37,979 nucleotides of DNA from a virus. Taxonomy: Duplodnaviria > Heunggongvirae > Uroviricota > Caudoviricetes. Positions within the stretch are counted from its first letter, which is position 1. Each line of letters starts with the position of its first letter. The notes below the pieces were generated by a model that did not search any database, was not told the origin of the DNA, and worked only from the letters and a program-made list of their open reading frames with translations. Position numbers and translations under genes: made by a program. The stretch lies in IMG/VR virus record IMGVR_UViG_2850784384_000004. One strand, 5' to 3'. Positions 10,259 to 11,730 of this stretch are shown piece by piece.

Positions 10259-11683
10259 ATGAACACCGATAAACAAGTTTACCCACTGTATTACGAAGCA
10301 AAAAATGACAAAGTAAGAAAACGTCTCGGTATTAAAGGCGGTTTTTACTGGGCTGAAGCGAAAAAATTATCCATTGCCATCTCCCGTGGTGCTGTTGCGA
10401 TTGACGATGCAGGCTACGATGAAGATGACTTTAAAAAACCTGTTCGCGTCAATTTGCCCGTTGTTGATGACCTCCCGCCAGAAGGCGTATTTGATACGGA
10501 ATTCTGCAACCGTTACGAAAAAGGCGGGGAAGATGGCATCACAATGGTATTTATCGCATCTTCTCCCTCTGTTCAGGACAAACCGGCCAGCACTGACAAT
10601 ACCAACGTCAACGGCGAAGACATGACAGAAATTGAGGAGAACATGCTCCTGCCAGTTTCCGGTCAGGAACTGCCCATTCGCTGGCTTGCGCAACACGGCA
10701 GCGAAAAACCAGTAACGCACGTTTCACGCGACGAACTCCAGGCATTACACATTGCTCGGGATGAAGAACTACCAGCTGTTACTGCCCTGGCTGTTTCCCA
10801 CAAAACCAGCCTGCTCGATCCGCTGGAAATTCGCGATCTCCACAAACTGGTGCGTGATACTGACAGAGTTTTCCCTAATCCAGGCAATTCAAGCCTGGGG
10901 CTGATGACTGCTTTTTTCGAAGCATACATGGACGCAGACTACACCGATCGCGGTCTGCTGACAAAAGAGTGGATGAAAGGAAATCGTGTTTCACGCATCA
11001 CGCGCACGGCTTCCGGCGCTAATGCTGGCGGCGGGAACCTCACCGATCGCGGCGAAGGTTTCGTTCACGATCTGACGTCACTGGCGCGCGACGTAGCCAC
11101 TGGCGTACTGGCTCGTTCAATGGACGTGGACATTTATAACCTTCATCCGGCACACGCTAAACGTGTCGAGGAAATTATCGCTGAAAATAAACCGCCCTTT
11201 TCTGTTTTCCGCGACAAATTCATCACCATGCCTGGCGGGATGGATTATTCCCGCGCCATCGTGGTTGCGTCAGTGAAAGAAGCACCGATTGGTATCGAGG
11301 TCATCCCCGCTCACGTCACTGAATATCTGAACAAGGTACTGACTGAAACCGATCATGCCAACCCTGATCCGGAAATCGTGGATATTGCCTGCGGTCGCTC
11401 CTCTGCCCCGATGCCGCAACGTGTAACAGAAGAAGGAAAACAGGATGATGAAGAAAAAACGCAGCCATCTGGCGCAATGGCAGATGAACAGGCAACGGCT
11501 GAAACAATGGAACCGGATGCAACTGAACATCATCAGAACACGCAGCCGCTGGATGCTCAGTCACAGGTAAATTCTGTTGATGAGAAATATCAGGAACTAC
11601 GGGCAGAACTCCATGAAGCCCGGAAAAACATTCCGCCCAAAAATCCTGTCGATGCAGACAAATTACTGGCTGCCTTGAGGTAG
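10259..11683 (+). CDS. hypothetical protein (474 aa), acidic C-terminal tail, no recognisable NTPase motif
   Basis: Long ORF with GAGGT RBS; stop codon lies inside a 12-bp IS600 end fragment, so the native C-terminus may be lost. Confidence 0.55.
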
Positions 11684-11730
11684 CCTGTGAGGTGTACTGG
11701 CAATAGCGGACACTACCATTTGTTCTTTTT

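Follow-up and report, generated by a model that had tools for sequence, protein, structure and literature searches.

A 12-nucleotide stump of a second, inverted IS600 beside a complete IS600 copy between truncated recE and gam genes

The window, i. e. the whole stretch of 37,979 nucleotides analysed here (IMG/VR virus record IMGVR_UViG_2850784384_000004, Caudoviricetes), carries four copies of IS600, a copy-out/paste-in element of the IS3 family with orfA, orfB and TG...CA ends. According to the repeat families, copy 1 (490-1753), copy 2 (11688..12951) and copy 3 (24703-25966) lie on the minus strand, and the fourth copy, which extends from 36759 to the window end, lies on the plus strand. Copy 2, also called B in the following, is full-length (1264 bp), as judged from the repeat families, the comparison of its flanks and its ORFs. 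The tip of its right inverted repeat (IRR) is at 11688 and the tip of its left inverted repeat (IRL) at 12951. On the minus strand, orfA (12585-12887) and orfB (11731-12549) are both intact, and 1-3 substitutions separate copy 2 from copies 1 and 3. Whereas copy 1 is flanked by a normal target duplication (AAC/AAC), a 3-bp target duplication is missing from copy 2, which has CTG on one side and GAG on the other. Copy 3 lacks a 3-bp target duplication as well (left ...GGATTAC, right CTGGTTATGG...), which implies another IS600-associated rearrangement.

Copy 2 lies between two truncated genes. To its left, a 474-aa ORF at 10259..11683 (+) encodes a truncated RecE of the exonuclease VIII family, as seen from the ORF list, the translation and Pfam PF06630 (Exonuc_VIII). 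This protein is named 'exonuclease VIII / RecE family [Shigella flexneri]' by the sources and occurs on 692 contigs; the full-length members of the RecE cluster have 1028-1049 aa. To its right follows a remnant of gam, a gene of the host-nuclease inhibitor Gam family (12952..13202, +), which was recognized by sequence comparison with the Gam gene at 4002-4307 of a related prophage region, L001. Of the original ATG the remnant has kept only the G, with which it starts, and its 3' end is cut by an IS911 copy, which lies 250 bp from copy 2. In related chromosomes the called gam genes start at an in-frame GTG within the IS600 end (window position 12926) and match PF06064 (Gam). In the window, a predicted ORF of 122 aa (12926-13294, +) likewise runs from the GTG in the left end of IS600 through the start-less gam into IS911.

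Directly before copy 2, at 11676-11687 on the plus strand, lies the 12-mer TGAGGTAGCCTG, which is identical to nt 1-12 of the IS600 left end (12/12, 0 mismatches). The window holds five exact copies of this 12-mer. Four are the IRL tips of the four IS600 copies; the fifth is solitary and immediately precedes the IRR of copy 2. Across the joint the plus strand reads ...CTGGCTGCCT/TGAGGTAGCCTG/TGAGGTGTACTGGCAATAGCGGACAC... (here and below, slashes mark junctions). Identity with the left end stops at exactly 12 nt, as nt 13 of the IRL is A, whereas the IRR begins with a T at window position 11688. Agreement of the 12-mer with the IRR tip (TGAGGTGTACTG) is limited to 9 of 12 positions. Thus the tip is derived from an IRL, and a duplicated IRR tip, which we considered as its source, is ruled out. 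The preliminary description had reported a 12-bp IS600 left-end tip abutting the right end of copy 2 and had regarded chance as plausible if the match were shorter than about 9 bp. Alignment to both IS600 ends bore out the tip at its full length, which is above this limit; the chance expectation for an exact 12-mer at one fixed position is about 6e-8 (4^-12). The CTG beside copy 3 (25967-25969) was considered as a partner of the CTG that ends the tip and rejected, because the bases after it do not continue as IS600 from nt 13.

The tip and the IRR of copy 2 both read 5'-TGAGG on the plus strand, with the outer tip leftward. Hence the broken inner end of the remnant (nt 12) adjoins the outer IRR tip of copy 2. 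The 12-mer derives from an IS600 copy oriented opposite to copy 2, which we call copy A; its annotation as nt 1-12 of the left inverted repeat of A (11676..11687, +) rests on the exact match, on the continuation of A in the contig L011 described below, and on its absence from L001. The opposite orientation had been noticed before, but the view that two IS600 termini face each other has to be corrected, since both tips point one way on the plus strand. The final codons of the recE ORF, TTG AGG and the stop TAG (11681-11683), are supplied by the junction and the IS600 tip, and the stop codon of the 474-aa ORF does lie inside the tip, as had been stated.

The block that is conserved between IRL and IRR (CGGACACT, nt 20-27) is missing from the 12-nt remnant. 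In IS911 the transposase binds the subterminal region of the inverted repeats (PMC2909936). The remnant, which lacks this block, is therefore a scar and, by this analogy, unlikely to serve as an end that a transposase could use. A scan for promoters and terminators around the joint gave nothing above the shuffled expectation and nothing at the joint itself.

When the joined flanks of copy 2 were searched in complete E. coli genomes, near-identical prophage regions were found in which the flanks are about 0.5 kb apart. The closest uninterrupted relative is L001, from E. coli O121 (NZ_CP119441). In BLAST alignments, L001 2054-3500 corresponds to window 10229-11675 and L001 4004-4254 to window 12952-13202. 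At the left flank L001 continues within its RecE-family gene as ...GCTGCCT/CTCGCGGAG..., i. e. with CTCGCGG after the break, and thus the 12-mer is foreign to the phage. The right flank is preceded in L001 by ...CCAGTGAT/GAGCGCTTACCC, and the ATG at this point is the start of the Gam-family gene. The 503 bp in between (L001 3501-4003), which comprise the 3' part of recE and the 'AT' of the gam ATG, have no counterpart in the window. The alignment with L001 places a deletion joint, identical in the relatives, at 11687..11688, between nt 12 of copy A and the terminal IRR nucleotide of copy B. This joint replaces the remainder of copy A plus the approximately 503 bp of recE 3' end and gam 'AT', while the IRR terminus of copy 2 is retained exactly at 11688 where the flanking DNA of the relative is missing. 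The scar thus leaves RecE truncated at 474 aa, gam without its own start codon, and copy 2 without a target duplication. It likely has no function, and its effects on RecE and gam are likely its sole consequences.

Other Shigella genomes had been proposed as the place to look for the same junction, and the search was fruitful. The junction of tip and IRR was found in identical form and at the same recE/gam locus in 16 other assemblies (L006-L010, L012, L014-L023). These are two species-representative genomes, one of them titled S. flexneri SFBU1023, four IMG/VR contigs, and ten complete NCBI chromosomes (4.46-4.66 Mb) that were retrieved via the exact 474-aa protein. The identity of the junction in all of them means that the scar is real and inherited and not an assembly artefact. 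Judging from these assemblies, it is fixed in the S. flexneri lineage. In SFBU1023 and in the 'E. coli' assembly ECMA0423 (L006/L007), the IS600 at this locus has about 45 substitutions within a patch of about 430 bp (about 10% divergence), equivalent to window 12128-12552; its ends and junctions are unchanged. A divergent IS600-like element seems to have donated this patch by gene conversion.

None of the three junctions, i. e. tip to IRR, IRL to gam, and recE to IRL, occurs in 5,426 complete E. coli genomes. E. coli matches that reach into the tip (L002-L005) proved to be chance resemblances of other flanks, and in the PLSDB plasmids the junction was not found, the best matches (L024, L025) being due to chance. 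Such short partial resemblances beside other IS600 copies illustrate how a tip could be mimicked. However, the 12-mer at the window locus matches at 12 of 12 positions exactly where it abuts copy 2, it is represented by 191 nt in L011, and the junction recurs identically in the 16 assemblies. A chance match or an assembly artefact can therefore be practically dismissed.

The IMG/VR contig L011 has the same junctions of recE with the IRL and of the IRL with GAGCGC (gam) as the window, and its RecE fragment is identical to that of the window at the amino acid level. It keeps nt 1-191 of IS600, which are followed by the IRR of an inverted copy: ...CACTTTAGGAC/TGAGGTGTACTGG. This type of junction, at nt 191, is known from this single contig. 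The presence of nt 1-191 at the same recE junction shows that a once longer IS600, copy A on the plus strand, left the 12-mer as its stump. Copy A is thus broken at nt 191 in L011 and at nt 12 in the window and the 16 assemblies, and both breakpoints have one fixed partner, the terminal IRR nucleotide of B. Microhomology at either joint amounts to at most 1 nt, and both joints lie exactly on the IRR terminus. The inverted IS600 of L011 is itself split by IS629 (8776-10085) without a duplication, and 11 bp of IS600 (ATCTTTGATGC) were lost where the two meet, which gives one more small deletion directly at the end of an IS3-family element.

The common joint of IRL and gam together with the differing breakpoints in A favours a deletion anchored on the IRR over an insertion into the tip. 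The best interpretation, which we consider quite probable in view of these breakpoints, is that the transposase mediated a deletion that was anchored on the IRR of copy 2 and ran into a neighbouring inverted IS600. Copy A would first have inserted in plus orientation into recE of a defective lambdoid prophage at ...GCTGCCT/. Some 0.5 kb downstream of it, copy B (now copy 2) would have inserted inverted relative to A, its IRL adjoining the gam start (/GAGCGC). The IS600 transposase would then have cleaved the 3' end of the IRR of B and joined it to the same strand between nt 12 and 13 of A; the same product would also result if a junction or dimer intermediate integrated intramolecularly. After replication, one daughter chromosome would have lost nt 13-1264 of A, the 3' part of recE and the 'AT' of the gam ATG, and B would have stayed complete but lost its target duplication. 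The 12-nt state could have arisen directly from the ancestor with A, spacer and B or via an intermediate of the 191 type, before the scar would have become fixed in the S. flexneri lineage.

Since the full ancestor with complete A, spacer and complete B was not found in IMG/VR, the JGI metagenomes or the complete E. coli genomes, we infer this starting arrangement from its products, as we do the details of strand transfer; catalysis by the transposase is deduced from the precision of the breakpoints. For the right junction expected of a complete copy A (CAGTACACCTCA+CCTCTCGCGG), IMG/VR yielded 0 matches, and the junction of recE and tip gave 0 matches in the JGI metagenome scan.

The preliminary description had considered two routes, an IS600 inserting into the tip of a pre-existing copy followed by deletion, and an aberrant transposition event. 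A scar of two IS600 copies with deletion or aberrant transposition agrees with nt 1-191 in L011 and the approximately 503 bp that are missing, whereas the order that starts with insertion into the tip is disfavoured. By that order, the inverted copy 2 would have inserted into the IRL of A after nt 12 and duplicated CTG (nt 10-12), and a deletion anchored on its IRL would then have removed the rest of A and the recE/gam spacer, which would end in the structure seen today. Inverted insertions of IS600 into IS600 with 3-bp duplications do exist (L026, AAG, near nt 479; L027, TAC, nt 722), and half of such a duplication might be represented by the CTG at 11685-11687. Yet independent nested insertions in L011 and in the window would each need a deletion that ends at the same gam nucleotide. 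If instead the 191 state came first, the step that made the 12-nt tip would still be anchored on the IRR. Moreover, the joint …CCTCA/CTGAGTTTAACGG of a nested insertion was found neither in the window nor in any compared locus. We therefore regard nested insertion as unlikely.

The nested IS600 copies of E. coli O121 2014C-4423 and strain 97-3250 resemble the scar in that a full inverted IS600 adjoins an internal position of another one. They retain both halves of the host element and a 3-bp duplication, whereas the scar has 12 nt, no duplication and a loss of phage DNA. Copy 2 is followed on its right by gam (GAGCGC) and not by IS600 from nt 10/13 on; thus the scar is not a simple nested insertion. 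In the E. coli plasmid pJNE132847_1 (L028, 3503-6463), the IRL of a full IS600 abuts nt 784 of an inverted partial IS600. Here the outer flanks are mutually inverted copies, which characterizes an aberrant event of the inverted-duplication type, unlike the 12-nt scar.

The IS911 copy that cuts gam (13203..14451, +) also has no target duplication (flanks CTG at 13200-13202 and AAC at 14452-14454), and 823 bp are missing rightward of it. Its site is empty in six of the chromosomes (L015, L016, L018, L021, L022, L023), and two others (L014, L017) contain a simple IS911 insertion with CTG duplication. In the window and in L020 the left IS911 junction is unchanged, and the 823 bp are lost flush with the right end without microhomology; in L019 the right flank is different again. 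Taken as a series, these relatives present IS911 as a parallel, independent case at the same locus in which the end of an IS was the anchor of a deletion. In L001 from E. coli O121, IS911 has inserted independently at a site 37 bp to the right of this one, with a GGA duplication.

Further insertion sequences in the window vary in this respect. IS629 (14813-16118) and the IS1 at 16465-17232 are without target duplications; the IS1 at 27809-28576 has one of 9 bp (TACTAACAG). The region 33723-36225 contains, unlike the IS600 scar, a simple nested insertion: IS911 (34977-36225) lies within an IS2 copy that begins at 33723, and a clean CTC target duplication flanks it.

Homologous recombination could lead to the same product. 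An extra IS600 would have inserted at nt 12 of A in the orientation of the copy at gam, and RecA-dependent recombination between these direct repeats would have deleted the DNA between them. The resulting sequence would be identical to that observed. The region is rich in insertion sequences without target duplications (IS600 copy 3, IS911, IS629 and the IS1 at 16465), and the divergent patch of about 430 bp in this very copy in L006/L007 speaks for recombination or conversion among IS600 copies. However, this route presupposes that three IS600 copies lay within 3 kb and that each lineage went through two events, which would have to be repeated for the 191 variant; formally it is a two-step equivalent of the adjacent deletion, which takes one step. 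It is thus even less probable than nested insertion.

Long inverted repeats are unstable in enterobacteria, and the hypothesized ancestor with A and B would form such a repeat of 1.26 kb. It could therefore be argued that slippage or breakage stimulated by this repeat caused the deletion independently of the transposase. But slippage uses short direct repeats, whereas the microhomology found here does not exceed 1 nt, the breakpoints of both variants coincide exactly with the IRR terminus of IS600, and the nearby IS911 shows like behaviour without any palindrome. A transposase-independent deletion is accordingly very improbable.

The deletion anchored on the IRR, which we prefer, has precedents. 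For IS629, another member of the IS3 family, adjacent deletions have been ascribed to a 'sloppy' first strand transfer to targets beyond the opposite end (bioRxiv 10.1101/2023.06.07.543989). The scar shares the features of adjacent deletions in this family (IS629, and junctions or dimers of IS911, IS2 and IS3): one IS end is kept to the nucleotide and the DNA flush with it is missing, the 3-bp target duplication is lost, there is no microhomology, and relatives have nested endpoints. It differs in that the far breakpoint lies within the terminal inverted repeat of a second, inverted IS600, of which a 12-nt stump remains. IS629 in EHEC has been described to depend on IEE, the IS-excision enhancer. 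We conclude that the scar belongs to the known class of IS3-family end-anchored deletions and is an ordinary IS scar.

In the circle or tandem-dimer junctions of the IS3 family (IRR-3 bp-IRL), IRR and IRL of one IS adjoin, as they do here. In an active junction, however, the outer tips of complete inverted repeats abut with a spacer of about 3 bp, whereas the scar has a 12-nt IRL, no spacer, and both tips in the same direction. With the wrong orientation, no spacer and an incomplete IRL, the scar is neither a circle or dimer junction nor the strong junction promoter that goes with it.

The position of the break within A allows a further speculation. It coincides with the end of the terminal box that both IS600 ends share (TGAGGTnnnCTG) and lies just outside the subterminal block, which is the putative binding site of the transposase. 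[quoted passage not shown] In IS911, insertions are targeted near IR-like sequences (Loot et al. 2002; Rousseau et al. 2008; both as cited in PMC7986276 and PMC2909936), and as far as these citations describe it, an IS3-family end is joined there within or next to an inverted repeat of its own family as well. Compared with the targeting described there, the IS600 scar is a single event at nt 12/13, and the related variant (nt 191) lies outside the inverted repeat. With one joint within the inverted repeat and the other at nt 191, targeting is indistinguishable from coincidence, and we consider the synapse quite unlikely. Further solitary 12-nt tips were found neither in the window nor in the compared loci. 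If the idea were true, the joint would document, in a natural genome, that strand transfer by an IS3-family element was directed to an IR in vivo; unless nt 12/13 proves to be a recurrent hot spot of this kind, the scar raises no new question.

The practical value of the scar is small, though its junction provides a stable lineage marker for S. flexneri. The state with nt 1-191, the state with nt 1-12 and the different states of IS911 form a compact natural series of how the ends of IS3-family elements erode Shigella prophages, each time by a deletion that starts exactly at an IS terminus.
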